Source: Bacteroidota bacterium
Lineage (GTDB): Bacteria; Bacteroidota; Bacteroidia; Chitinophagales; Chitinophagaceae
Direction: 5' to 3'
Assembly (NCBI GenBank): GCA_048497855.1
Contig: JBEHZB010000006.1
Span: 108,153-172,152, forward strand
DNA: 64,000 nucleotides
Part shown: one piece after another, positions 4,009 through 33,760 of the stretch
Position numbering within the stretch: the stretch's first letter is position 1
How the letters are laid out: every line of letters begins with the position of its first letter
The notes under the pieces: model-generated
The model's database searches: none
What the model saw: the letters and a program-made list of their open reading frames with translations, nothing else
Told to the model about the DNA's origin: nothing
Position numbers and translations under genes: made by a program

Positions 4009-5275
4009 GTTTTTGTGCCGGCCCCATATCTTTAAATATCAGGCGCAGGTTTTGATCACGTGTAAAATAATTATACACCCAGTTGATAAATACAAAGAAC
4101 CTGTTCTTAACGCCTAATATCAGCATCAGGTGCAGCGACATCCATATCATCCACGCAAAGAAGCCTCCAAAATGTAATTTAGGTTTGGGCATATCTACTA
4201 CAGCAAGGTTGCGCCCTACTGTTGCCATGCTGCCTTTATCGTTGTACACAAATTCTTCCAGTTGTTTATCGCTGCTTTTCATTTCTACCCGGCGAAGGTT
4301 CTGCGCCAGCATATCTGCCTGCTGCATCGCAACCGGAGCTAATTGCGGATGCCCGTTGGGATAAGCGGGCTCTTCCATATAGGCCACATCCCCTATTGCA
4401 TATATATCGGGAAAACCGATCACCTGGCAATGCCTGTCAATTTTTATACGATTACCTTTAGCTATAAGATCTTTATTGATGCCTTCGGGCACATTGCCCT
4501 TTACACCTGCGGCCCAGATCACTGTTGAAGTTTCGATGATCTCCCCGTTTTGCAAGGTTGCTTTTTCTCCATCATAATCTTTAAGGATGGTATTGGTCAA
4601 AACTTTTACACCCAGTTTCTCCAAATATTTCCGGGATTGCTCACTCGATTTTTCACTCATCACGCCCAATGTTTTACCTGTACCTTCCAGAAGATAGATC
4701 TTCATTAAAGAGAAATCCAGTTCGGGGTAATCTTTAGGCAATACAAAGCGGCGCATATCGGCAATAGCACCACTTAATTCTACACCCGTTGGCCCGCCGC
4801 CTACTACCACAATATTCATTAAGCGTTGCAGTTTATTTACATCGGCATTTACGGCTTCTTCAAAATTATTGAGCAGGCAGTAGCGCAGTTGCAATGCTTC
4901 CAGGGTACTTTTCATGGGCAATGCATGATCTATTAAATTCTTATTGCCGAAGAAATTGGTATCGGCGCCGGTAGCAATTACCAATGCATCAAATTCGTAT
5001 GTGCCGATATCGGTTACCACTTTTTTATCTGCTGTATTTACCTGCAATACTTCCGCCATCCGGAAGCGTACATTTTTACTTTTATGAAAAACCTTCCGCA
5101 ACGGGAAAGAGATATTGCTGGCATCGAGGCCAGCTGTAGCTACCTGGTAAAATAAAGGTTGAAACTGGTGAAAGTTATACCGGTCAATTAATGTTACATC
5201 AAAACCGGGTTTATTGCTGAGTTTGCGTGCCAGTCGTAAGCCTCCGAATCCCCCGCCTATTATAATGAGTTTCAT
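3998..5275 (-). CDS. ndh: type II NADH:quinone oxidoreductase (NDH-2), FAD/NAD(P)-binding
   Basis: 425-aa ORF with N-terminal Rossmann motif IIGGGFGG and second dinucleotide motif VVGGGPTGVE. Length and C-terminal membrane-anchoring helices are typical of NDH-2. Confidence 0.85.
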   Translation of the reverse strand: MKLIIIGGGFGGLRLARKLSNKPGFDVTLIDRYNFHQFQPLFYQVATAGLDASNISFPLRKVFHKSKNVRFRMAEVLQVNTADKKVVTDIGTYEFDALVIATGADTNFFGNKNLIDHALPMKSTLEALQLRYCLLNNFEEAVNADVNKLQRLMNIVVVGGGPTGVELSGAIADMRRFVLPKDYPELDFSLMKIYLLEGTGKTLGVMSEKSSEQSRKYLEKLGVKVLTNTILKDYDGEKATLQNGEIIETSTVIWAAGVKGNVPEGINKDLIAKGNRIKIDRHCQVIGFPDIYAIGDVAYMEEPAYPNGHPQLAPVAMQQADMLAQNLRRVEMKSSDKQLEEFVYNDKGSMATVGRNLAVVDMPKPKLHFGGFFAWMIWMSLHLMLILGVKNRFFVFINWVYNYFTRDQNLRLIFKDMGPAQKPKG

Positions 5276-9188: not shown

Positions 9189-12100
9189 ATGAGAAAATTT
9201 GCAACCAGCCTAATGGTATTGCTGCTTTTTTTGCTTCCGCTTGCTGCCCTGGCGCAGACCACCATTACCGGCAGAGTTACCGGGGAAAATGGTGCGCCTG
9301 TTGAAGGGGCATCAGTAATTATTAAAGGCAAAAAAACAGGGACCAAAACGGATGCTAACGGTAATTTCACCATTTCTGCCGCCAAAGGCGATGTACTGGT
9401 GGTATCTTCCGTAAACTTCACCGCCAAACAGGTAAAGATCAATGATGGCCGCCCTATCGCTTTAACCTTGATATCTACAGATGGAAAAATGGAAGAAGTG
9501 GTAGTTACAGCCATGGATATCAAACGAAATCCCCGGGAATTAGGTTACTCCGTTCAAAAAGTAGATGGTAAAGAAGTACAGGAAACACAACGGGAAAACT
9601 TTTTGAACAGCCTCCAGGGCCGTGTGGCCGGTGTAACGGTTACTTCTACTTCAGGTGTTCCCGGTGCTTCTTCAAGTATTGTATTAAGGGGGTTCAACTC
9701 CCTGTCATTAAGCAACCAGCCGTTGTTTGTAATTGATGGGGTTATTGTAGATAACCAGACGATCGATGAAAACTCCAATGGTGGCTCTGGCGTAGGTTTG
9801 GTTGAAAGAGGCGCGGGCTTGACCAACACAGCTAACAGAAATAATGACTATAATAACAGGATAGCTGATATCAACCCAAATGATATTGAAACGTTTACCA
9901 TATTAAAAGGCCCGGAAGCAACAGCTTTATATGGCAGCCAGGCAAGTTCCGGTGCTATTATCATTACTACACGTAAAGCTAAAAGCAACAAACTGGCTAT
10001 ACAATATGATAATAGTTTCAGGATACAAACCCTTACAAGATTCCCTGATTTTTTTGATGGCTTTTCTGGTGGCTCAAATGGAGATACTACCAGCAAACAG
10101 TTATTCCGTTATTTTGGCCCTGCTTACGAACCTGGAACAACATTTTATGATAATAAGAATGCTTTCTTCAAAACAGGCTTTTCACAAACACATAATCTTG
10201 GTGTCGACTTTGGTATCAAGAAATCAATATTCAGGTTCTCGGGTTCTTATTTCGACCAGGATGGTATAGTGCCTAACAGCAGTTACAACCGATATACTTT
10301 AAAACTGTCGAACACTACTAAATTCTGGAACAATAAAATTGACATCTCTCCTGCCGTATCTTATACCAATACTACCAATAAAAAAGTATTAAGAAGCGCT
10401 GGTGGTTTCATGATCTCTTTATTATCCTGGCCAACCACCAATGATATAGTAGCTTCGCAAGGAGATAATGCTACTAAAAACCCGCTATTTGTTGGTACTT
10501 CAAATACAGAACTTGACAATCCTTTATTTAACGTAAATAACAACAAGGCTGGTGAAAAAACAGAACGTTATAATACATCGTTAGGTATAAATATCAATCC
10601 TTACAGCTGGTTATCATTATCAGGCCGCTTTGGATATGAAACTTATAAAACAGAAGGTTATTTACGTTATCACCCGCTGTCTTATTTTATTTCTGCAAGT
10701 ACTGGTGGCATACAGGACAATTTCTGGAGAAGCTATCATGGTTACAATCATACCATTACTGCTACCGCCAGAAAAACATGGCGCAAAGATTTCAATTTTC
10801 GCCTGATGGCCGGAACGATGTGGCAGGATTATAAAACAGAAATGTATGCCGTATCAGGAACCAATATAGTTGATAATGTTATCGGCTCTAAAATGTATAA
10901 AAACGGGCTGCCTTTAACAAACGCTGACTACAATGCATTGCCCGGCCCTGCTGATAGCAATGCTACAAGAGTTATTACACGTACACGCTTACTAAGAAAT
11001 GTATATGGAGAAAACAACGAGTCAATTCTTAGAGAATTTGCTTACTTTGGCGAGTTTGCGTTTAATTATAAGAACCTGGTGTTCCTTAACTATACGCATC
11101 GGTTTGAAGAAGCTTCTACTCTTCCAAAAAAGAACAGGAAATTTAACTATCCTGGTGGAAGCATAAGTGCAATTGTTACTGATATCTTCCCGGTATTGAA
11201 AAGAGGAAATATCTTGAATTATATGAAAATACGTGGCTCTATGGCTGCAACTGCAAGGTTAAATACGCCTTACTCAACACAATCTGTTTTTGTAAATAAC
11301 CTTGCCAGTGGCGGTGGCTATTCTTATAGCTTCTTTAACAACAACCCTGAACTGGAGCCAGAAAAACAGAGAACGTTTGAAGTAGGTACAGAAATGCGTT
11401 TCCTTAAAAGCAGGCTTGGCATAGATGCAACTTATTATAATACACTTAACAAAGACCAGATCATTGAAAACTTCAGGCTAAGTTATGCTACCGGCTTTGT
11501 ATTAAATACTCAAAATGCCGGCAGCACAAGAAACCAGGGTGTTGAAATTGCTATAGATGCACAGGTAGTTAAAAAGAGAAAATTCAGCTGGTCGACACGC
11601 TTTAACTTCAACAAACAATGGAACAGGATAGAAGAAATGCCTAAGAACGTAGCGTTATACTATCTTGCTGATGCAAACGTATTTCAGAATGTAGGCAGTG
11701 GTGTAGTTTTAGGTGGTACTACTACTACAATATCAGGTTTTGGTTATGCAAGAAATAATAACGGCCAAATATTAATAAGTCCAACAAGCGGTTATCCTGT
11801 TATAGATGGCGTTCAAAGGCCACGTGGAGACAGGTTACCGGATTTCACTTTAGGTTGGGTTAACAATTTAGCTTACAAAAACTGGAAGCTAAGCTTCTTA
11901 TGGGATATAAAGATCGGAGGCGATATTTACAACGGTACCGAACACTTCCTGACCATGATCGGCAGAAGCAAAATGACAGCTGATCGTTTAACGCCAAGAG
12001 TAATAGATGGAGTACTAAGCGATGGCCTTGAAAATACTGATCATCCCACAAAAAATACAATTGTTGTGATTCCTTACTATGATGATTTTTATTACAGGAA

Positions 12101-12389
12101 TTTACCTGAGGAAGAATTCATTGAAAAAGATGTGAACTGGTTCAGGTTAAGAGATGTTACATTGAATTATAGTTTCCCTGCTAAAACATTCAGAAGAATA
12201 AAAGCGATGAAAGACCTTAGTGTATTCTTCACCGCTACAGACCTGGTGCTGATAACCAATTATTCAGGAGCTGATCCTTCAGTAAATACAAACACAGCAG
12301 GAACAAGGGGTGTTGGTACATTTGGATTTGATTATGGCACATTGCCTACGCAGGCTGCCTATAATTTTGGTATCAGGGCATCATTTTAA
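9189..12389 (+). CDS. SusC/RagA family TonB-linked outer membrane protein
   Basis: 1066-aa ORF with a signal peptide, CarboxypepD_reg-like N-domain (ITGRVTGENGAPVEGASVIIKG), plug motif (PLFVIDGV..NDIETFTILKGPEATALYGSQASSGAIIITTRK) and C-terminal Phe. No STN domain. Confidence 0.9.
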   Translation: MRKFATSLMVLLLFLLPLAALAQTTITGRVTGENGAPVEGASVIIKGKKTGTKTDANGNFTISAAKGDVLVVSSVNFTAKQVKINDGRPIALTLISTDGKMEEVVVTAMDIKRNPRELGYSVQKVDGKEVQETQRENFLNSLQGRVAGVTVTSTSGVPGASSSIVLRGFNSLSLSNQPLFVIDGVIVDNQTIDENSNGGSGVGLVERGAGLTNTANRNNDYNNRIADINPNDIETFTILKGPEATALYGSQASSGAIIITTRKAKSNKLAIQYDNSFRIQTLTRFPDFFDGFSGGSNGDTTSKQLFRYFGPAYEPGTTFYDNKNAFFKTGFSQTHNLGVDFGIKKSIFRFSGSYFDQDGIVPNSSYNRYTLKLSNTTKFWNNKIDISPAVSYTNTTNKKVLRSAGGFMISLLSWPTTNDIVASQGDNATKNPLFVGTSNTELDNPLFNVNNNKAGEKTERYNTSLGININPYSWLSLSGRFGYETYKTEGYLRYHPLSYFISASTGGIQDNFWRSYHGYNHTITATARKTWRKDFNFRLMAGTMWQDYKTEMYAVSGTNIVDNVIGSKMYKNGLPLTNADYNALPGPADSNATRVITRTRLLRNVYGENNESILREFAYFGEFAFNYKNLVFLNYTHRFEEASTLPKKNRKFNYPGGSISAIVTDIFPVLKRGNILNYMKIRGSMAATARLNTPYSTQSVFVNNLASGGGYSYSFFNNNPELEPEKQRTFEVGTEMRFLKSRLGIDATYYNTLNKDQIIENFRLSYATGFVLNTQNAGSTRNQGVEIAIDAQVVKKRKFSWSTRFNFNKQWNRIEEMPKNVALYYLADANVFQNVGSGVVLGGTTTTISGFGYARNNNGQILISPTSGYPVIDGVQRPRGDRLPDFTLGWVNNLAYKNWKLSFLWDIKIGGDIYNGTEHFLTMIGRSKMTADRLTPRVIDGVLSDGLENTDHPTKNTIVVIPYYDDFYYRNLPEEEFIEKDVNWFRLRDVTLNYSFPAKTFRRIKAMKDLSVFFTATDLVLITNYSGADPSVNTNTAGTRGVGTFGFDYGTLPTQAAYNFGIRASF

Positions 12390-12407: not shown

Positions 12408-14042
12408 ATGAAAAAGAGATATTTAACATTACATATAGCGTCAATTGCCTTGCTGCTGTCTGCCTGCAGTAAAAAAATTGATGATGCCTATGCTAATCCG
12501 AACGCACAGGTAAAACAGCCGATAGAAACATTGATGCCAAACGTTGTAGCTAATATGTGCATCAGCAATACGGCCAATGGTTCGTTATACGGCCCTCAAA
12601 ATGACGGTCAGTATGTTGGCAGGTATATACAGTTTTGGGTAACTAATACTGCCGGCAACCAATACGATCAAATGGGGCAAACTACTACAAACAGTACTGC
12701 TGCAGCATCTGATATTGGTGGCGCACAATGGGCCATGCATTATTATGGCATGGGGCAAAATCTTAGCAAGATAATAGAATGGGGAACAGAAGAAAAGAAA
12801 TGGGATTATGTTGGCGCTGCTTATGCTATGAGAGCTTTTGGCTGGTTAGCTGTTACTGATATGCATGGCGAAGCGATACTTAAAGAAGCTTTTAATACCA
12901 GCCTGTTGGTTTTCCATTATGATACACAGCAGGAAATTTATGAAGAAGTAAAAAGATGTTGCAGGCTTGCGATAGAGAACCTAAGCAAAACAGGCGACGG
13001 CGTAAGTGCAGCAAATTTAGCTTTAGGTGCTAACTACTGTTCTATGAAAGGCGATGTTGAAAAATGGAAGAAATTCACTTATGCAATTATGGCAAGGGTA
13101 TTTCACCGCACAACCAACAAAGCAGATTATAAACCTGATTCTGTAATTTATTACGCTAACCTTGCTGCAACTACCAATGCTGATAATTCTTACATTTTAT
13201 TTGAAGGCGGTACTTCTCCAAAATGCAGCTATTATGGCCCGCTTCGCGGAAATATCCAAACCTTCCGCCAGTCGAGGTTTGCAGCCGATCTGTTTTCTGG
13301 TGTCAACACATCTTTCCCTGGTGTAAATGATCCCCGGGCATGGTACAAATTACGGGAAAATATAAACGGCACATTTAAAGGCATCAGGCCAAACAAGGGA
13401 TTGAATGACGGCCTTGCTGCACCAAATGATATACCACCAAATTTCTTCGGATTGGCAGGTACAGCCACTACCCCATCTGTTGAACGTTACATTTTCCAAA
13501 ATGCAATGCCATGGCCTTTGGTTACAGCATCTGAAATGAAGTTCTTAAAAGCAGAAGCTTATTATCGCAAAGGAGATAAAGCAAATGCGCTTACTGCGTA
13601 TAAAGAAGGCATCACACTTGATTTTGATATGCTTGCTACTACATATCCGCAAAATATACCTGCTGGCCATGTAATAGATGGAACTACTGCATCATCCTTC
13701 TTAGCTAATCCAGCAGTAGTTCCTACAGTTGCCAACTTCAACTTATCACATATCATGTTGCAAAAATATATTGCACTGTATGGTTATGGTTTTATGGAAA
13801 CATGGGCTGACATGAGGCGTTATCACTATGTTGATGTTGAAACAGGCTCAACACGCCAGGTGTACACCGATTTTATCCCACCTTCCGGTGGAGATCTTTT
13901 TCCGAATAATAATGGCAACTTAATTTACAGGGTGCGCCCAAGGTACAATTCAGAGTTCCTGTATAATATAGATGCGCTTACACAAATAGGTGCTACAGCT
14001 CTCGATTTTCATACCAAAAGGCAATGGTTTACCGAGCCATAA
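12408..14042 (+). CDS. SusD/RagB family nutrient-binding outer membrane lipoprotein
   Basis: 544-aa ORF 18 nt downstream of SusC with lipoprotein signal (LLLSAC). TPR-like SusD features include EMKFLKAEAYYRKGD and the C-terminal RxxY..E pattern. Confidence 0.85.
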   Translation: MKKRYLTLHIASIALLLSACSKKIDDAYANPNAQVKQPIETLMPNVVANMCISNTANGSLYGPQNDGQYVGRYIQFWVTNTAGNQYDQMGQTTTNSTAAASDIGGAQWAMHYYGMGQNLSKIIEWGTEEKKWDYVGAAYAMRAFGWLAVTDMHGEAILKEAFNTSLLVFHYDTQQEIYEEVKRCCRLAIENLSKTGDGVSAANLALGANYCSMKGDVEKWKKFTYAIMARVFHRTTNKADYKPDSVIYYANLAATTNADNSYILFEGGTSPKCSYYGPLRGNIQTFRQSRFAADLFSGVNTSFPGVNDPRAWYKLRENINGTFKGIRPNKGLNDGLAAPNDIPPNFFGLAGTATTPSVERYIFQNAMPWPLVTASEMKFLKAEAYYRKGDKANALTAYKEGITLDFDMLATTYPQNIPAGHVIDGTTASSFLANPAVVPTVANFNLSHIMLQKYIALYGYGFMETWADMRRYHYVDVETGSTRQVYTDFIPPSGGDLFPNNNGNLIYRVRPRYNSEFLYNIDALTQIGATALDFHTKRQWFTEP

Positions 14043-16328: not shown

Positions 16329-16334
16329 GTATTT

Positions 16335-16476
16335 GTTATTAGTTATTGGTTATTAGTTATTGGTGATTAGTTATTGGTGATTAGTTGAACGTCTTTTAGA
16401 CTCAAACCTTACCTTTGCACGTCAAATTCGTTATCGGCTACAAACTTATAACTAATCACCTATAACTTATAACTAA
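16335..16476. repeat. heptamer array (gttatta/gttattg/gtgatta x8, 16335-16390) with imperfect inverted partner (16444-16476) flanking a promoter-like spacer
   Basis: Direct reading of period-7 words. The right arm cttataa ctaatca cctataa cttataa is the approximate reverse complement. The locus lies between divergent genes. Confidence 0.8.
16410..16417 (+). promoter_or_regulatory. Bacteroidetes-type -7 box TACCTTTG upstream of ychF
   Basis: Exact match to TAnnTTTG, with TTG at 16385-16387 about 22 nt upstream. It lies 67 nt before the ychF ATG. Confidence 0.4.
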
Positions 16477-17715: not shown

Positions 17716-20184
17716 TTGAAACTCACTTCCACACCCGGTTATACTATCATACACGAATGGCTTGCCCAAAAAGGCCATCACCCTTTTGCATTTCAGCAAC
17801 AAGCCTGGCAGCATATCATCAATGGAAAAAGCGGGCTGGTAAATGCACCAACCGGTTGTGGTAAAACGTATTCTGTTTTCATCGGCGCAGTAATTGATTT
17901 TATCAATCATCATCCCAAAAATTACCAGTCAAAAAAAAATAACGGCTTACAACTCATTTGGATAACACCATTACGTGCCCTTGCAAAAGATATCGGCCGT
18001 GCCATGGAAGAAGTCATCACCGAATTAGGCATACAATGGCAGGTGGGCATCCGTAACGGCGATACACCCATCAGTGAACGGCAAAAACAAAAGCGGCAGG
18101 CTCCCGAAGTATTGATCATTACACCGGAAAGTTTACATTTATTACTGGCACAAAAACATTATCCTGATACTTTTAAATCTTTAAAAATAATTGCAGTAGA
18201 TGAATGGCACGAGCTCCTTGGCAGCAAGCGTGGTGTACAGGTTGAACTGGCAATATCAAGAATCGTTGCCGTTAATACCGCAACAACAGCCTGGGGTATC
18301 TCTGCTACCATTGGCAATTTAGAACAGGCAAGAGATGTATTGATGTCTTCATTACATACAACCGGCGAAATTGTAAAAGCCGATCTTCATAAAAATATAA
18401 CCATCGAATCCATCATTCCTGATGAGATAGAAAATTATCCCTGGGCCGGGCATTTAGGGATACGGTTGGTAAAAAGAGTTATCCCGATCATTGAAGAAAA
18501 TAAAACAACGCTCATCTTCATCAATACAAGAGGCATGAGCGAAAGATGGTACCAGGCCATATTAGATGTAGCGCCTGAATTGGCCGGAGCCATTGCATTG
18601 CATCACGGCAGTATTGAGCAGGACCTGAGATTATGGGTGGAAGAAAATTTGCACACCGGCAAATTGAAAGCCGTTGTATGTACTGCAAGCCTTGATCTTG
18701 GTGTGGATTTTCGCCCGGTTGATGCCGTGATACAGGTAGGCTCACCAAAAGGTGTAGCAAGATTTTTACAACGTGCAGGCCGCAGTGGCCACCAGCCTGA
18801 TGCTACAAGTAAAATTTATTTTCTTCCTACGCATTCATTGGAACTGGTAGAAGCCGCAGCATTAAAGGAAGCCATTGAACAAAAAGTAATTGAAAGCCGT
18901 GAACCGATGTTATTGTGTTTTGATGTGCTGATACAATATTTATGCACCATCGCTATTTCTGATGGTTTTAAACCCGAACAGTTATTCAACGAAATAAAAA
19001 ACACGTATTGCTTTAGAAATATTACCGAAGAAGAATGGCAGCAACTCTTATTATTTCTTACCGCAGGTGGTAAAGCATTGCAGCAATATGATGAATATAA
19101 AAAAGTGGAAGTTGGAGAAGATGGTGTTTACAGAATTACCAACCGCCGCATAGCCATGCGGCACCGTATGCATATCGGCACCATTGTAAGCGATGCGATG
19201 ATGAAAGTAAAATTCATGAGCGGCGGTTATGTTGGTGTCATCGAAGAATGGTTCATCAGCCGCCTGCAGCCCGGCGATGTATTCACTTTAGCCGGAAGAA
19301 ATTTAGAACTGGTAATGATAAAAGATATGGCGGCGCTGGTAAGAAAATCGAACAGTAAAAAATCTATCGTTCCAAGCTGGATGGGCGGACGGATGAGCCT
19401 TACTGCCAATCTTGGCCATATACTCAGGCAGACATTCAATAAGGCTGATCAACCCAAAGCTGCCGCTAAAAGCACAGAGCTTACTGCGCTGAAAGAATTA
19501 TTTCTCCTTCAAAAACAATTATCGCACATCCCCAAAGACAATGAAGTATTGATAGAACAGATCGAATCCAAAGATGGCTTTCATTTATTGGTATATCCAT
19601 TTGAAGGAAGACAGGTACATGAAGCAATGAGCGCTATCATTGCCTATCGTATCGGGCAGATAATGCCCATCACCTTTTCCATTGCCATGAACGATTATGG
19701 TTTTGAATTATTAAGTAACCAGCCCATTCCTGTTGATGATACCAATGCCGTTGATCTTTTTACTACAGACAATCTGCTCATCAACATACAAAAAAGTATG
19801 AACAGCACTGAAATGGCCAGGAGGAAATTCAGGGATATTGCTGTGATCGGCGGATTGATATTCCAGGGCATGCCCGGCGAAAAAGTAAAAGCAAGGCATT
19901 TGCAGAGCAGCGCCGGTTTACTGTTCAATGTATTCAGCGAATACGAGCCCAATAATATTTTATTGAAACAGGCTTATCACGAAGTGTTGGAACAACAAAT
20001 GGAAGAGCAACGGCTGCGCAATGCTTTTACCAGGATCAGCAACAGTACTATCGTTATCACTTTTCCGCAGCATCTTACACCACTCTCCTTCCCTATTATC
20101 GTAGATGGCCTGAGCCGTATCAATCTTTCTTCTGAAAAAATGGAAGACAGGATCAGGCGGATGCAGGAAGAATTGGGGAAATAG
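17716..20184 (+). CDS. ligase-associated DNA damage response DEXH-box helicase (Lhr-core-like)
   Basis: 822-aa ORF with a TTG start in the track. It has Walker A APTGCGKT, a DEWH box (VDEWHELL), helicase C motifs (QRAGRSGH) and a long DEAD-associated C-terminal region. PdeM follows immediately. Confidence 0.85.
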   Translation: MKLTSTPGYTIIHEWLAQKGHHPFAFQQQAWQHIINGKSGLVNAPTGCGKTYSVFIGAVIDFINHHPKNYQSKKNNGLQLIWITPLRALAKDIGRAMEEVITELGIQWQVGIRNGDTPISERQKQKRQAPEVLIITPESLHLLLAQKHYPDTFKSLKIIAVDEWHELLGSKRGVQVELAISRIVAVNTATTAWGISATIGNLEQARDVLMSSLHTTGEIVKADLHKNITIESIIPDEIENYPWAGHLGIRLVKRVIPIIEENKTTLIFINTRGMSERWYQAILDVAPELAGAIALHHGSIEQDLRLWVEENLHTGKLKAVVCTASLDLGVDFRPVDAVIQVGSPKGVARFLQRAGRSGHQPDATSKIYFLPTHSLELVEAAALKEAIEQKVIESREPMLLCFDVLIQYLCTIAISDGFKPEQLFNEIKNTYCFRNITEEEWQQLLLFLTAGGKALQQYDEYKKVEVGEDGVYRITNRRIAMRHRMHIGTIVSDAMMKVKFMSGGYVGVIEEWFISRLQPGDVFTLAGRNLELVMIKDMAALVRKSNSKKSIVPSWMGGRMSLTANLGHILRQTFNKADQPKAAAKSTELTALKELFLLQKQLSHIPKDNEVLIEQIESKDGFHLLVYPFEGRQVHEAMSAIIAYRIGQIMPITFSIAMNDYGFELLSNQPIPVDDTNAVDLFTTDNLLINIQKSMNSTEMARRKFRDIAVIGGLIFQGMPGEKVKARHLQSSAGLLFNVFSEYEPNNILLKQAYHEVLEQQMEEQRLRNAFTRISNSTIVITFPQHLTPLSFPIIVDGLSRINLSSEKMEDRIRRMQEELGK

Positions 20185-20253
20185 TTATTGGTTATTAGTT
20201 ATTGGTTATTAGTTATTGGGAATTGGGAATTGGGATCTGGTGTTTGGATATTG
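20184..20253. repeat. ten tandem heptamers (gttattg gttatta gttattg gttatta gttattg ggaattg ggaattg ggatctg gtgtttg gatattg)
   Basis: Direct reading. The array begins at the last base of the helicase stop codon and ends 8 nt before a -7 box. Confidence 0.85.
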
Positions 20254-26697: not shown

Positions 26698-26699
26698 CT

Positions 26700-26880
26700 G
26701 GGGTAATGGTTGGATGATTTAATTGCTTAATTGTTTTACCAACAATTTATCTATTTAGCAATAGAGCAATATTAAAGTCTGTGTCTCACCGAGGTTTTCA
26801 TAAGCAGATGGCTTAATTGTTTTATTGCTCAATTGCTTTATCAACAATTAATCCATTTAACAATAAAACAATCAGCGCAT
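26700..26880. repeat. ttaattgtt/aacaattaa word hairpins (two related copies)
   Basis: The first is taattgtt-ttacc-aacaattt (26727-26749). The second is ttaattgtt..21 nt..aacaattaa (26813-26851). gcttaattgtttta recurs at about 26725 and about 26811. The same words recur at 28091-28117 and 33846-33871. Confidence 0.6.
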
Positions 26881-26891
26881 TTACTCAAAAT

Positions 26892-26930
26892 AAAAAAGAG
26901 GGCCACTTCAAAATGGCCCTCTCCTTTATT
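26892..26930. terminator. hairpin between convergent purC (+) and 26946..27338 (-)
   Basis: agagggcca (26897-26905) / tggccctct (26914-26922), a 9-bp stem with an 8-nt loop. An A-run precedes it and a T-rich stretch follows. Confidence 0.6.
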
Positions 26931-26945
26931 TATTCTTACTCTTCT

Positions 26946-27338
26946 TTAATTGCTGATGATAGCACCCAGTACCAGTGCAGCCAATCCACCTACTATCAAA
27001 CCTGTACCAAATGATTTCTCTTTTTGTTGTCTTTCCCTTTCCGCATCATTTATTCTTCTTTGCCTTTCATAGCTGCTGAGCGAGCGGTCATTTCTGTAGC
27101 CATTGATCCTTTGATCATATTGTTGGTTCATACGGTCGTATTCTGCCTGCCTGCGATATTGATCAGAACGTCTCCTGTTATCATTATAACCATACGTTCT
27201 CTGCTGATCCTGGTCATTAGTATTCCAGCTATCTCTTGTTTGAGCTGGTTGGTAACCATCCCGGTTGTCGTACCTGCTTTGTGCAGATGCTGCATTAACT
27301 GAAAGTACCGCTGCTAGTATAATTATTAACTTTTTCAT
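26946..27338 (-). CDS. hypothetical secreted low-complexity protein with C-terminal glycine-zipper-like anchor
   Basis: 130-aa ORF with signal peptide MKKLIIILAAVLSVNAASAQ. A roughly 90-aa R/D/Q/N/Y-rich stretch is followed by C-terminal GTGLIVGGLAALVLGAIISN. A hairpin lies downstream (26897-26922). Confidence 0.55.
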   Translation of the reverse strand: MKKLIIILAAVLSVNAASAQSRYDNRDGYQPAQTRDSWNTNDQDQQRTYGYNDNRRRSDQYRRQAEYDRMNQQYDQRINGYRNDRSLSSYERQRRINDAERERQQKEKSFGTGLIVGGLAALVLGAIISN

Positions 27339-27526
27339 TTTACTTAATTTTTAGGTTAAAAAGTTTGTTTTGTTTCTTGTATATATAAGACGGTAGATGG
27401 AATGCGCAGTTTAAGCGGGTTATTGGCGGGAGAGTTAAAAGGGAGTTAAGGTGCAGAGGGATTGTTTAACGGCTTGATGGTTCTATTGTTTAATTGTTAT
27501 GTAGGGATTGCATCGTTTGTTGTCAA

Positions 27527-28030
27527 TCGCCTATTGTCGTTTTACCCCTACTCCCCTTCCCGAAATAATCGGGATGTTTCAAAAGGGAAGAAATGGAGAA
27601 GATTATATTTCTTTTACGTATTCCGGTTGGCTGCCGCCCAAAGTCATTTTTTATCATGAAAGCTTGCCGGAATTTCTGCGAAGGAATCATGATGATCATG
27701 AAAATCTGCCGGAACTTCCGCAAAGGCGTCATGATGATAACGACGGCCTGCCAGGAATCCTGCGAAGCCATCATTATTATAATGATGGTATCCAGGTAAT
27801 TAATGCGGCCAATCAGTAATAAAAGTCATAATTGTATTATAATCAATCATTTAAGACATCAAAGCATGAAAATTAGCCCGGATTTGCAGCGACTCACCGG
27901 CATGATACCGGTACCTTGCCCGAACTTCGGCGAAAGGATCGGTATTATACCGAAAGCTTGCCGGAACTTCCGCGAAGGAACCGGCATCGTACCGGAGGCC
28001 TCCCAGGAAACGAAGGAGTCGAGGGGTAAG
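27527..28030. repeat. 42-bp in-phase tandem array (7 well-preserved units at 27653, 27695, 27737, 27863, 27905, 27947, 27989, plus decayed units between and upstream)
   Basis: I aligned the units by eye. The conserved core is gcYtgccggaaYttccgcgaagg. The offset from the 27653 unit to the 27863 unit is 210 = 5 x 42. Each unit holds an 11-nt core palindrome and a unit-junction hairpin, both showing pairing-preserving substitutions. Confidence 0.85.
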
Positions 28031-28090
28031 GAAAAACGTAATTTATTAAAGATCAATGGGATAATGGCTAAATGGATTTATTGCTACATA

Positions 28091-28117: not shown

Positions 28118-28369
28118 CATAAAGCTATTTAACCATTTGAATTACCTTTTTTGTCCTTAAAGTAACATATCTCTTATAAAGGCAAAATCTTCGAAAAGAT
28201 AGCATCCCGCTTAAAATATTAATAGTAAGGAACTTATTCACCAGTTTATGAATTATAAACCCATAGTGTGGATTTTTTTCGACCTATTTTAACGATCTGC
28301 AATAAATAAAATTAAGGCACAATAAATGCATAAATGTTTGTGGTTTTTCATAGGATATTGGATTTTAAC

Positions 28370-28402
28370 GAGGTACTGTTTTCACAGTGGCCTCTTTTTT
28401 TT
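28370..28402 (+). terminator. plus-strand-oriented intrinsic terminator with no annotated plus-strand gene upstream
   Basis: The hairpin is gagg-ta-ctgt tttc acag-tgg-cctc, followed by T8 (28395-28402). The T-run overlaps the stop codon of the minus-strand gene 28401..29189. There is no T-run in the minus orientation. Confidence 0.5.
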
Positions 28403-29189
28403 AATCATACTCCTTCTTTATCAGGCCGATCAATTCTTTAGTAAGTGTTTGTTGTTTTTTTAAAGCACTGCGATACAATCTTAAGGATGCCCGGTAACCT
28501 GCAAAATCATTATAGCAGGCAATTATTTTTGTTCTGTCAGTTGTTGCCAGGTCTATCTTATCTCCCATCAGTGTACAAAGCTCATCATTGGAATACTGTT
28601 TTATATCGGTACTTTTTTCTGAACGAAGCCTCGCCTGCAGATCGATCCGGTATTTATAATTGTACACCTGCTTTTCTGTAGATAACAGTTCTTTATAAGC
28701 ATCCAGTACATATTGGGCTTCCTGGTCGCAAAAATCTTTTCCTACATCATATACAGCAATGCCGTCAGCCACATTCTTTTTATCGATCAGGCTAAGGCCG
28801 CCATTATATTTTAACTGGATTATCGTTCGCTCGGTAAAATTCACCTTATCAGGAAACCAGTCGTATTTCATTGTAAAAAGATAATTCAGCTTTATGGCAT
28901 TTATATTATCCATCGGCTGCTGCATCTGGTCAAGCGCAGAGTCGAGCCCTGTTATAGATTCGCTTATCTGGGCTATTATATCGCTTAATTTAACCGTATC
29001 CTTAACCAGGTCGGTACTAAGCGACGACATATATTGTGCTGCTTTTTCCCTGTCATCGCTGTTCTCTTTATTTTTTTGAACAACAATACCCAGGTACACA
29101 CCTATGGTAGTAATGATAATAGGAAAAATGATGTTGGTGCAAAAAGGGTACAGGAAATTCTTGTACAACTTAGATTCAAGGAAACGCAT
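28401..29189 (-). CDS. hypothetical membrane-anchored protein
   Basis: 262-aa ORF with one N-terminal TM helix (IIFPIIITTIGVYLGIVV), then a predicted helical soluble region. No motif recognised. AT-richer than its flanks. Confidence 0.55.
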   Translation of the reverse strand: MRFLESKLYKNFLYPFCTNIIFPIIITTIGVYLGIVVQKNKENSDDREKAAQYMSSLSTDLVKDTVKLSDIIAQISESITGLDSALDQMQQPMDNINAIKLNYLFTMKYDWFPDKVNFTERTIIQLKYNGGLSLIDKKNVADGIAVYDVGKDFCDQEAQYVLDAYKELLSTEKQVYNYKYRIDLQARLRSEKSTDIKQYSNDELCTLMGDKIDLATTDRTKIIACYNDFAGYRASLRLYRSALKKQQTLTKELIGLIKKEYD

Positions 29190-32008: not shown

Positions 32009-32128
32009 AGTTAATGGTTAATAGTTCATGGTTAATGGTGGCTTGACAAATTTACATTTTCCATATCAATAAAAACACCTGCAATATTTGAACGCTAGCG
32101 ATTAACTATTAACCATTAACGATTAACT
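32009..32128. repeat. inverted heptamer-word arrays (gttaatg-type) flanking the DinB / carboxyltransferase divergent promoter region
   Basis: gttaatggttaatagtt (32010-32026) is the exact reverse complement of aactattaaccattaac (32104-32120), with a 77-nt spacer. The right array abuts the ATG at 32129. Confidence 0.85.
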
Positions 32129-33760
32129 ATGGAGGATATAGAATTCAACAAAAACGAAGATGCGATGAAGCTTTCCTGGAGCCGCGTAAAGCAGCAACTG
32201 GAAAAAATATATGAAGGCGGCGGGAAAAAGTCGTTAGAAAAACAACGGGAGCGTAATAAGCTTACCGCAAGAGAACGCATTGCTTACCTGTGCGATGCGG
32301 ATAAACCTTTTATTGAGATAGGCGCATTTGCAGGCTTTGAAATGTATGCAGAACAAGGTGGCTGCCCGGCCGGTGGTACCGTAAGCGGACTTGCTTATGT
32401 AAATGGCAGACAATGTATTGTGGTTGCTAATGATCAAACAGTAAAAGCAGGTGCATGGTTCCCTATCAGCGGTAAAAAGAATTTACGCATGCAGGAGATC
32501 GCTATGGAAAACAAGCTGCCCATAATTTATCTGGTTGACAGCGCCGGTGTTTTCCTTCCGATGCAGGATGAGATCTTTCCTGATAAAGAACATTTCGGCC
32601 GCATCTTTCGCAACAATGCCAAGATGAGTGCAATGGGCATTACACAAATAGCTGCCGTAATGGGCGCTTGTGTTGCAGGTGGTGCTTACCTTCCGATCAT
32701 GAGCGATGAAACATTGATGGTAGAAGGCAATGGTTCTATCTTTCTCGCAGGAAGTTATTTGGTGAAGGCTGCTATTGGTGAAGATATTGATAATGAAACG
32801 CTAGGCGGCGCTGAAACACATAATGCATTAAGCGGTATTGCCGATTATAAATTTGCTACAGAAAAAGAATGCCTGGATTATATTAAGAAGCTGATGAGCA
32901 AGCTGGCAAAGCCTCAAACAGCCGGTTTCAATCGTATTGCTGCTGTTAAACCAAAAGCAGGTAAAGAAGAAATATACGGTTTACAAAACGAAGGCAATAC
33001 TAAACCATACGATATGGTGAAGCTTATTGAATGCATTACCGATGCAGATAGCTTTGATCAGTTCAAGGAAGAGTATGGCAAAAGTATTGTTTGTGGTTAT
33101 GGACGTATAGAAGGCTGGGCAGTGGGCATTGTTGCCAACCAGCGCCTTATCGTTAAAAGTAAAAAAGGTGAAATGCAGATGGGTGGTGTTATCTATAATG
33201 ACAGCGCCGATAAAGCGGCCCGCTTTATTATGAACTGCAACCAAAAAAAGATACCGCTTGTTTTTTTACAGGATGTTACCGGCTTTATGGTAGGCAGCCG
33301 CAGCGAACATTCCGGCATTATAAAAGATGGCGCCAAGCTGGTGAATGCAGTAGCTAATTCTGTGGTACCAAAGATCACGATCATTGTAGGTAATTCGTAC
33401 GGTGCAGGTAATTATGCCATGTGCGGCAAAGCATACGATCCTCGCTTTATTTATGCATGGCCATCGGCAAAGATCGCAGTGATGGGCGGTGAGCAGGCTG
33501 CTAAAACATTATTGCAGATACAGGTAGCTTCTTTAAAAAGCAAAGGCGAAGAGATCACCAAAGAAGTGGAAGATAAATTACTGAAGGAGATCATGGACCG
33601 TTATCAATCACAAACCTTACCGCAATATGCCGCTGCAAGGTTGTGGGTAGATGCGATCATTGATCCCGGTGAAACAAGAAGGGTTATTGCAGAAGGTATT
33701 GCTGCTGCTGATCATAATAATGATATACCTGAATTTAAAACGGGAGTGTTCCAGGTGTAA
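32129..33760 (+). CDS. acyl-CoA carboxylase carboxyltransferase (beta) subunit, methylcrotonyl-/propionyl-CoA carboxylase type
   Basis: 543-aa ORF with two crotonase-like carboxyltransferase halves. It has the typical LTARERI N-terminal motif, the GGAYLP oxyanion region and GNSYGAGNYAMCG. Confidence 0.9.
   Translation: MEDIEFNKNEDAMKLSWSRVKQQLEKIYEGGGKKSLEKQRERNKLTARERIAYLCDADKPFIEIGAFAGFEMYAEQGGCPAGGTVSGLAYVNGRQCIVVANDQTVKAGAWFPISGKKNLRMQEIAMENKLPIIYLVDSAGVFLPMQDEIFPDKEHFGRIFRNNAKMSAMGITQIAAVMGACVAGGAYLPIMSDETLMVEGNGSIFLAGSYLVKAAIGEDIDNETLGGAETHNALSGIADYKFATEKECLDYIKKLMSKLAKPQTAGFNRIAAVKPKAGKEEIYGLQNEGNTKPYDMVKLIECITDADSFDQFKEEYGKSIVCGYGRIEGWAVGIVANQRLIVKSKKGEMQMGGVIYNDSADKAARFIMNCNQKKIPLVFLQDVTGFMVGSRSEHSGIIKDGAKLVNAVANSVVPKITIIVGNSYGAGNYAMCGKAYDPRFIYAWPSAKIAVMGGEQAAKTLLQIQVASLKSKGEEITKEVEDKLLKEIMDRYQSQTLPQYAAARLWVDAIIDPGETRRVIAEGIAAADHNNDIPEFKTGVFQV

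Follow-up and report, generated by a model that had tools for sequence, protein, structure and literature searches.

BOX elements are modular (boxA-boxBn-boxC) interspersed repeats with a 45-nt boxB; both of their strands are open, and they are often transcribed together with neighbouring operons (PMC3049150). BrickBuilt of Porphyromonas gingivalis, a MITE/minisatellite, consists of a leader, 23-nt repeats and a tail and occupies ~19 loci (PMC4596501). Repetitive extragenic palindromes (REP) and bacterial interspersed mosaic elements (BIME) are extragenic imperfect palindromes found in clusters, sometimes in tandem together with flanking DNA, and have been proposed to act in mRNA stabilisation or attenuation (PMC3733652). 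The DNA analysed here is a stretch of 64,000 nt (the window) from a bacterium that PurC places in the Chitinophagaceae, near Lacibacter and Ferruginibacter. Positions 27647-28057 of its minus strand are probably a copy of a lineage-restricted, multi-copy, non-coding modular interspersed element of the BOX/BrickBuilt/BIME kind, with a co-transcribed structured RNA as its most likely mode. The repeat family is new, i.e. previously undescribed, while the kind of element is already known. To our knowledge, the interspersed repeat families of the Bacteroidota outside Porphyromonas are almost undescribed. Coordinates given without a locus number are those of the window; L-numbered loci are contigs of relatives, metagenome-assembled genomes (MAGs) and metagenomes.

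A period of 42 was reported by Tandem Repeats Finder at 27653-27738 and 27896-27994, and a repeat search gave in-register copies spaced 42, 168 and 210. Autocorrelation at lag 42 reaches 0.71 (z=10.3) for 27653-27778 and 0.56 (z=7.5) for 27863-28030, and is no better than chance in both outer parts of the gene-free gap that holds the array. An earlier reading of the window, made from the letters alone (the sequence-only reading), had described a 42-bp tandem array in this gap; the description holds for these two blocks, and the unit sequences and hairpin coordinates quoted with it were found to be correct. Weaker units had been traced back to ~27527, but 27527-27652 is at chance level (lag-42 z=0.3) and the unit profile matches nothing there. 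The interval between the blocks, 27779-27862, had been taken for two decayed units. Its first half (27779-27820) is indeed recognisable as a unit, but 27821-27862 is a conserved pre-head that recurs at the starts of arrays elsewhere.

Neither a 7-unit profile nor the 20-nt core (with <=3 mismatches) found a match elsewhere within the 64-kb window. In the window the array is thus a single locus; dispersed copies turned up in a related metagenome. Nothing reached an Rfam gathering score across the window and the gap gave sub-threshold noise only, in agreement with the view that the array matches no named RNA family. With blastn against plasmids and phages the array was unmatched. Scans with a two-core DNA pattern returned 5 irrelevant loci from viral contigs and 22 loci from genome contigs, the latter mostly unrelated coding repeats with periods that are multiples of 3, and were discarded. 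A CRISPR array was ruled out, as the units abut without spacers.

Homologous copies were reached through the proteins. When the open reading frames (ORFs) of all six frames were concatenated and compared with 5.8 billion proteins, no homologue came up. A full HMMER search of 1.84 billion representative proteins, with a profile built from two sequences of the minus-strand frame (...SFAEVPASFRY...), matched six, of which three (P0127, P0129 and P0131) are short ORFs built from the array's own 14-residue units. The other three were rejected as unrelated 14-residue repeats. The one inspected, P0128, belongs to a 42-bp x 25 satellite that is unrelated to the array and lies on a contig with few genes (L049 5126-6159, 42-bp x 24.8, 91% matches, on a 2-Mb ENA contig); the satellite was picked up by the protein profile because one of its frames reads ...SFAQVKAS.... 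The best protein match, P0127 (NCBI), was not located at the DNA level. P0129 and P0131 map to intergenic arrays in L047 and L048, which are different contigs of JGI sample 3300052274, which is also the source of L027, a relative with 94% PurC identity; we infer that the L047 and L048 contigs belong to one genome.

The units of L047 and L048 are clearly homologous to those of the window (nhmmer E down to 1e-7; covariance model 62-70 bits). Furthermore, the similarity extends over the composite structure: 405 nt of the window, from 28057 to 27653 on the minus strand, are colinear with L047 8004-8406 (67% identity, E 8e-45), and the composite also aligns with L048. The element is found at several intergenic loci, counted as one in the window and two (L047 and L048) in the related metagenome. 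By these alignments, the array is not a stand-alone local feature but belongs to a dispersed element, modular in build and with a defined head, that has copies at two or more other loci.

A simple element runs from a pre-head with ATTGATCTT, through a divergent head unit and canonical units, to a terminal unit and an A-run. Between the head and the terminal unit there are 2-5 units of 42 nt (sometimes 41 nt), and the arrays of the three aligned copies have 3-6 units each. The terminal unit is marked by a characteristic core, GCTGGAAATCCGG. The window and L047 each carry two simple elements, head to tail, and L048 carries four arrays. The pre-head, the terminal unit and the A-run are conserved among the three colinear copies, and the motif shared by head and tail is direct, not inverted.

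In the window, the whole element (27647-28057, minus strand) extends from pre-head 1 through the A-run. Pre-head 1 (ATTGATCTTTAATAAATTACGTTTTTC, 28031..28057, minus) forms the 5' boundary; its counterparts in L047 and L048 align with it, and the BLAST alignment to L047 starts at 28057. All the following parts are likewise on the minus strand. Sub-array 1 begins with its head unit (27989..28030, V4 of the sequence-only reading), a divergent first unit that aligns to L047 8031-8072 and L048 7527-7568. Two canonical 42-nt units follow (27905..27988; V3 and V2), which have the arms TCGGTA/TACCGR and score nhmmer E 1e-8 to 1e-7 and 64 bits with the covariance model. The terminal unit of this sub-array (27863..27904; V1) has the core GCTGCAAATCCGGG and is like L047 8157-8198 and L048 7905-7946. 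Sub-array 2 is preceded by pre-head 2 (TTGATGTCTTAAATGATTGATTATAATACAATTATGACTTTT, 27821..27862; also quoted in short as TTAAATGATTGAT...), which resembles the L047 pre-head TTAAATGATTGATCTTTTAAAGAATAGGGCTTTT. Its degenerate head unit (27779..27820) forms a 9-bp junction hairpin, 27768-27788, with the next unit. The three canonical 42-nt units of sub-array 2 (27653..27778; U3, U2 and U1), with the arms TCATGA/TCATGA, were detected by Tandem Repeats Finder and by nhmmer (E 1e-9 to 1e-7; covariance model 61 bits). The A-run lies after the last unit (27647..27652), and AAAAAAG... likewise follows the terminal units of L047 and L048. In all three copies the second pre-head and its head unit together measure 83-84 nt. 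The blocks U and V of the window are "in phase" because the 84-nt interval between them is made up of exactly these two parts.

The sequence-only reading had seen no credible coding sequence in the gap, which agrees with our results: no ORF has a Pfam match, no homologue was found and no frame has consistent codon usage. Its conclusion that the repeat does not reflect a reading frame is also borne out, by the lack of codon periodicity and by the frame-breaking 41-nt units. It erred in stating that all six frames are open, since in two of the six almost all units contain a stop, supplied by the TGA in TCATGA. A decayed or functional small gene on the minus strand, encoding a protein of 14-residue repeats (...SFAEVPASFRY...), would fit the 86-97-aa ORFs that gene callers predict over three homologous arrays and the fact that a stop usually closes the frame just behind the array, after KK or KKQ. 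For codon usage the frame scores 0.24 in sub-array 2, near the real-gene mean of 0.28, but -0.06 in sub-array 1. The mean column entropies by codon position are 0.83/0.81/0.74, so there is no third-position excess of variation. In array B of L047 the units alternate between 42 and 41 nt, and therefore every frame is broken. An ATG is present in 2/7 pre-heads, the other 5/7 having no start codon, and the window copy of the frame has two in-frame stops and no start. Changes in the stems produce radical residue changes (HHD, DAG, DAD), and the tail after the arrays is conserved as DNA across the stop codon and a 1-nt indel. A repeat-protein gene is thus very improbable, and the ORFs that led to the homologues are most likely spurious calls. 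Spurious status has likewise been shown for coding sequences in large pneumococcal BOX elements (PMC3049150).

Base pairing in the array was assessed first for the units of the window. Over both helices proposed for the unit, a core palindrome and a hairpin spanning each unit junction, 80.5% of cells pair, compared with 66% in shuffled arrays and 31-44% when the partners are slid, and 13 cells are changed on both sides against 5.4 expected. The palindromes and the paired changes noted from the sequence are therefore real. The two palindromes per unit exist as claimed, but they are not independent observations, because any palindromic unit repeated in tandem necessarily has two centres of symmetry in each period. 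An alternative in which the outer arms pair within the unit is slightly weaker.

The family-wide set comprised 20 units with their junctions. In the junction hairpin the end of each unit pairs with the beginning of the unit after it, giving a stem of 6 bp closed by a U-R-A loop of 3 nt. It is 95% paired over the 20 units, with two-sided changes in 4/6 pairs. Cells with two-sided changes number 40, against 16.8 in shuffles (0/500 shuffles reach the observed value), and slid controls of this set pair at 26-43%. RNAalifold predicts exactly the junction hairpin and nothing else. In the window the hairpin is exemplified by TCATGA-TGA-TCATGA at 27687..27701, with equivalents at 27768-27788, 27897-27911, 27939-27953 and 27981-27995. 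There are at least five fully complementary stem types (TCATGA/TCATGA, TCATTA/TAATGA, TCGGTA/TACCGA, TCGGCA/TGCCGG and TCCGCA/TGCGGA, and also CCGGTA/TACCGG), and by our estimate the separate compensatory changes number at least five. An extended 15-bp helix round the junction is imperfect (75.7% paired), with several positions that pair poorly. The 5+1+5 core is 82% paired, and with its 1-nt loop a full RNA hairpin is impossible. Successive hairpins are separated by a 27-nt linker of conserved sequence, which also forms a quasi-palindrome; the linker columns are more conserved than the stem columns. The sequence-only reading had proposed that a folded single strand is either under selection or maintained by templating; this is still the best description of the module, and the pairing-preserving variation became much stronger once the copies from other loci were added.

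A further rival reading takes the array as a set of double-stranded DNA sites for a dimeric protein, such as a sopC-type centromere, iterons or a landing pad for a nucleoid protein, with one site for every four turns of the helix. A period of 42 bp corresponds to four turns, the palindromic core, centred on 1 nt, is unable to fold into a full RNA hairpin and alternate positions of the core are invariant (C-n-G-n-A-n-T-n-C-n-G). However, the covariation of stem and core between units and copies would destroy a fixed recognition sequence, the unit length varies between 41 and 42, and the immediate flanking genes are unlike partition or replication genes, which leaves an array of protein-binding sites a highly unlikely explanation.

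At all three loci the element lies between co-directional genes and has the same sense as these genes, an arrangement with a chance of ~1/64. The window genes are both on the minus strand: upstream of the element is the gene for a 262-aa protein (28401..29189), for which the ORF/Pfam search gave a weak DUF6090 match, and downstream is that for a 130-aa protein (26946..27338) with a signal peptide, a low-complexity Q/R/N/D-rich region and a C-terminal hydrophobic stretch. Read on the sense strand, the junction stems contain 11 G:U pairs and 4 A:C/C:A pairs; the latter would count as wobbles if the other strand were folded. Because of the co-orientation and the G:U bias, the window minus strand, which the sequence-only reading had not considered, is weakly favoured as the more likely functional strand. 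Co-transcription is considered the most likely mode since all copies seen are flanked by co-directional genes and share the direction of these. The element would be co-transcribed with its neighbours as a structured intergenic RNA and, by analogy with what has been proposed for BOX, BIME and enterobacterial repetitive intergenic consensus (ERIC) sequences, such an RNA block, if it acts at all, might change 3'-end decay or read-through.

Between the element and the upstream gene, a hairpin on the plus strand at 28340-28404 (GAGGUACUG-UUUU-CAGUGGCCUC, then U8) abuts the stop codon of the minus-strand 262-aa gene and looks like an intrinsic terminator for the plus strand. This segment has a far sub-threshold Rfam match to the Bacteroidetes FopS small RNA (21 bits vs a gathering score of 56).

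A rival reading is that of stand-alone genes for a structured small RNA, each with its own promoter near the pre-head and producing a multi-hairpin RNA that is a protein sponge of the CsrB/RsmZ type or acts in trans. Conserved linkers combined with stems that keep only their pairing are typical of functional RNA, the 5' pre-head is conserved, the orientation is biased and the G:U bias points to one strand. Against such genes, no Bacteroidetes -33/-7 promoter was found at any head and no sense-strand intrinsic terminator after the arrays, the copies per locus and the number of units vary freely, and the family is absent at the same locus in a relative with 91% PurC identity as well as in more distant relatives and so is not a conserved gene. 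Small-RNA genes of this type are unlikely.

The antitoxins of the type III toxin-antitoxin systems ToxIN, CptIN and TenpIN consist of non-coding direct repeats in tandem, each ~36-45 nt long and 2-6 in number. The array matches this general format, and a ToxI-like role would mean that the tandem RNA repeats are processed to units which inhibit a downstream endoribonuclease toxin. The gene downstream of the element, however, differs at all three loci, encoding the 130-aa secreted protein in the window, an EamA protein in L047 and a sigma-54 response regulator in L048, and no terminator followed by a toxin gene is present. As there is no conserved downstream gene, this explanation is effectively refuted.

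Several points weigh against our preferred interpretation of a co-transcribed interspersed element. The units are paralogues, so that the covariation counts overstate the number of independent events. The co-orientation is based on 3 loci only, the wobble asymmetry on 15 cells, and the folding energies show no consistent difference between the strands. The missing promoters and terminators count here too: the heads lack a -33/-7 promoter of the Bacteroidetes type, a scan for the sigma-70 type likewise gave nothing consistent, and no sense-strand terminator follows the arrays. In L047 the element comes after a strong terminator. No terminal inverted repeats or target duplications were found for the element. 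Finally, ~75 kb of other Chitinophagaceae loci contained no copy, and the copy number may therefore be low.

The sequence-only reading had suggested that the synteny of the purC interval be compared in relatives, and this comparison gave no conserved array. In L029 (91% PurC identity) the adjacent 130-aa gene is still present, as is a gap of 1 kb without genes. The L029 gap contains, at 11772-12124, a pyrimidine-rich array in which ~17 units recur every 21 bp, with a super-period of 42 bp, and no called gene. L027 (94% PurC identity) has other genes at the locus, and a called ORF there includes an array of another kind (42-bp x 10). Significant similarity to the window array was seen for neither. 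Homologues of the 130-aa gene at ten metagenome loci (L032-L041) have short upstream regions and no arrays there. As the arrays are absent or different at the relatives' loci, the window array is not a conserved feature of the locus. Synteny through the 262-aa gene was not informative, its homologues sitting in other contexts.

The L027 array, at 13024-13438 (identical in L028 from 11910), has 87% matches and lies in a tightly packed 200-aa ORF (...ISFHDREEVSNYRE...). Its variable core is also a changing palindrome: AGTTC-G-GAACT, AGTTC-A-GAACT, TTTCGAAA, GGAATTCC and GAAGCTTC. The region just downstream of purC is variable (window 26698-27376 vs L027 10925-11500 and L029 10925-11516), L027 having GIY-YIG and cupin genes where L029 and the window have the 130-aa gene. 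The nucleotide homology of the window to L027 and L029 ends within ~50-700 bp after purC.

The arrays may gain and lose 42-nt units through slippage or unequal recombination. The complementarity of the stems would be preserved in one of two ways, through selection acting on the folded strand or through template switching within a strand, in the quasi-palindromes. We also considered that the 42-nt module is the recognition unit of an undescribed Bacteroidota system, either a new multi-hairpin regulatory or sponge RNA, or a tag-less REP-like single-stranded DNA (ssDNA) hairpin element spread by some enzyme. This is a doubtful proposal, under which the arrays of two MAGs from other families, L009 and L012, would be distant members of a phylum-wide superfamily. 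L009, a Paludibacteraceae MAG, has two intergenic 42-bp hairpin arrays in inverted orientation (181-472 and 558-708), and L012, a Prevotellaceae MAG, has one (212-583), in which the stems change from ccgg/ccgg to ctgg/ccag, a compensatory change. Like the window array, they have a 42-bp period, a nearly identical core (CTTGCCGGAACTTCGGCAAG), an intergenic position and compensatory stem variants, and they are without an Rfam family. Unlike it, they have a palindrome centre shifted by half a base, and similarity outside the core is weak. Both were selected by a pattern that forces the core, and the covariance model gave 16.5 bits for L009 and left L012 unmatched. They are candidate homologues of the window family at most, because the core was forced by the pattern, the similarity outside it is weak and the model scores are poor.

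Other repeats are present in the same genomes. Short intergenic tandem repeats with a 7-bp period (TCAATGT, TTGAAAA, TATTAGT, GTTATTG, GTTAATG and ATTAACT) are numerous, being found in the window at 6-30, 43-79, 16330-16386, 16443-16474, 20184-20235, 32010-32039 and 32101-32130 and in L027 at 4370-4405; the GTTATTG run is present at the orthologous position in L027. The repeat periods seen in the lineage, 7, 14, 21 and 42, are all multiples of 7. A short CGCAGAT-type repeat with a period of ~10-13 bp occurs in intergenic DNA of the related genome, at L027 531-570, 1104-1143 and 14382-14406 and at L048 7425-7470 (ctgcgttcatctgcgaaaaccgatctgcgtttatctgcgg being the L048 example). Copies of Flavo-1 (RF01705; 46.5 vs a gathering score of 42) are found at L047 8932-9017 (+) and L048 7209-7294 (-), a few hundred bases from the arrays and in opposite relative orientations in the two loci. 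In L047 and L048 Rfam matches these adjacent copies and not the arrays, and the window has no copy of Flavo-1. These positions fit Flavo-1 being a dispersed repeat that shares intergenic 'junkyards' (PMC9723704).

The family provides unusually clean evidence of a hairpin that is kept while its sequence drifts, and is thus a tractable case for separating selected pairing, in RNA or ssDNA, from template switching. It also yields spurious small-ORF calls and assembly-prone repeats in Chitinophagaceae genomes. The arrays could serve as strain markers and, if transcribed, the element may alter the expression of neighbouring genes.

In its geometry the array is nearly identical to the sopC centromere of the F plasmid, which consists of twelve 43-bp direct repeats, each with an inverted repeat, forming identical SopB sites beside sopAB. 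Both are made of ~42-43-bp direct repeats that each contain a palindrome. In the window element, by contrast, the palindromes covary and the immediate flanking genes are unrelated to partition.

With REP/BIME sequences the element shares extragenic, clustered imperfect palindromes. The junction hairpin, with its 6-bp stem and 3-nt loop, extendable to an imperfect 15 bp, corresponds to the REP stem-loop of 20-40 nt, and the sequence-only reading had listed a dispersed REP-like element associated with a RAYT transposase among the outcomes that would count against it. The dispersed modular copies at other loci agree in part with that outcome, but the GTAG/CGTC tag and an alternating orientation are absent. 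A REP/BIME-type system would imply that the hairpins are recognised as ssDNA by an HUH enzyme, RAYT-like or other, which spreads them, the arrays being clusters of its sites. The palindromic units are indeed dispersed, extragenic and clustered, the hairpin is kept while the stem varies, and the arrays adjoin another dispersed motif, Flavo-1, in two loci. Yet a GTAG/CGTC tag, as defined in PMC3733652, flanks the hairpin in 0/20 aligned units on either strand, the units are strictly head to tail and the density is far below that of REPs, of which a genome has tens to hundreds of copies. Within the 64-kb window no RAYT-like ORF was detected with a loose tblastn probe, which gave one weak match. 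The ORF matched is presumably an aldose-epimerase-type protein. On balance, spread by such an enzyme is quite unlikely.

The comparison with BrickBuilt is closer in organisation. Like the element, BrickBuilt is an intergenic repeat of the Bacteroidota with a leader, tandem short repeats, a tail, predicted stem-loops and no Rfam match (PMC4596501). It differs in having 23-nt repeats, where the element has 42 nt, and IS5-like terminal inverted repeats with target duplications (PMC4596501). One inverted repeat near the ends of the array, 27542-27559/28012-28029 (14/18), was rejected as terminal repeats or an inverton, as by our calculation ~2.6 such pairs are expected by chance.

BOX, finally, is likewise interspersed, intergenic, non-coding and modular, with a reiterated subunit of ~45 nt in variable number, predicted stem-loops and spurious small coding sequences in annotations (PMC3049150). 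It belongs to another phylum and, compared by description only, shows no apparent sequence resemblance to the element. The element, for its part, lacks an end module that would pair with the head as boxC does, usually occurs as a head-to-tail duplicate and has several co-varying stem types. A head, a reiterated subunit of variable number and an end module, the parts of a modular repeat, are all present in it, and by analogy its closest counterparts in behaviour appear to be the modular interspersed repeats BOX and BrickBuilt.

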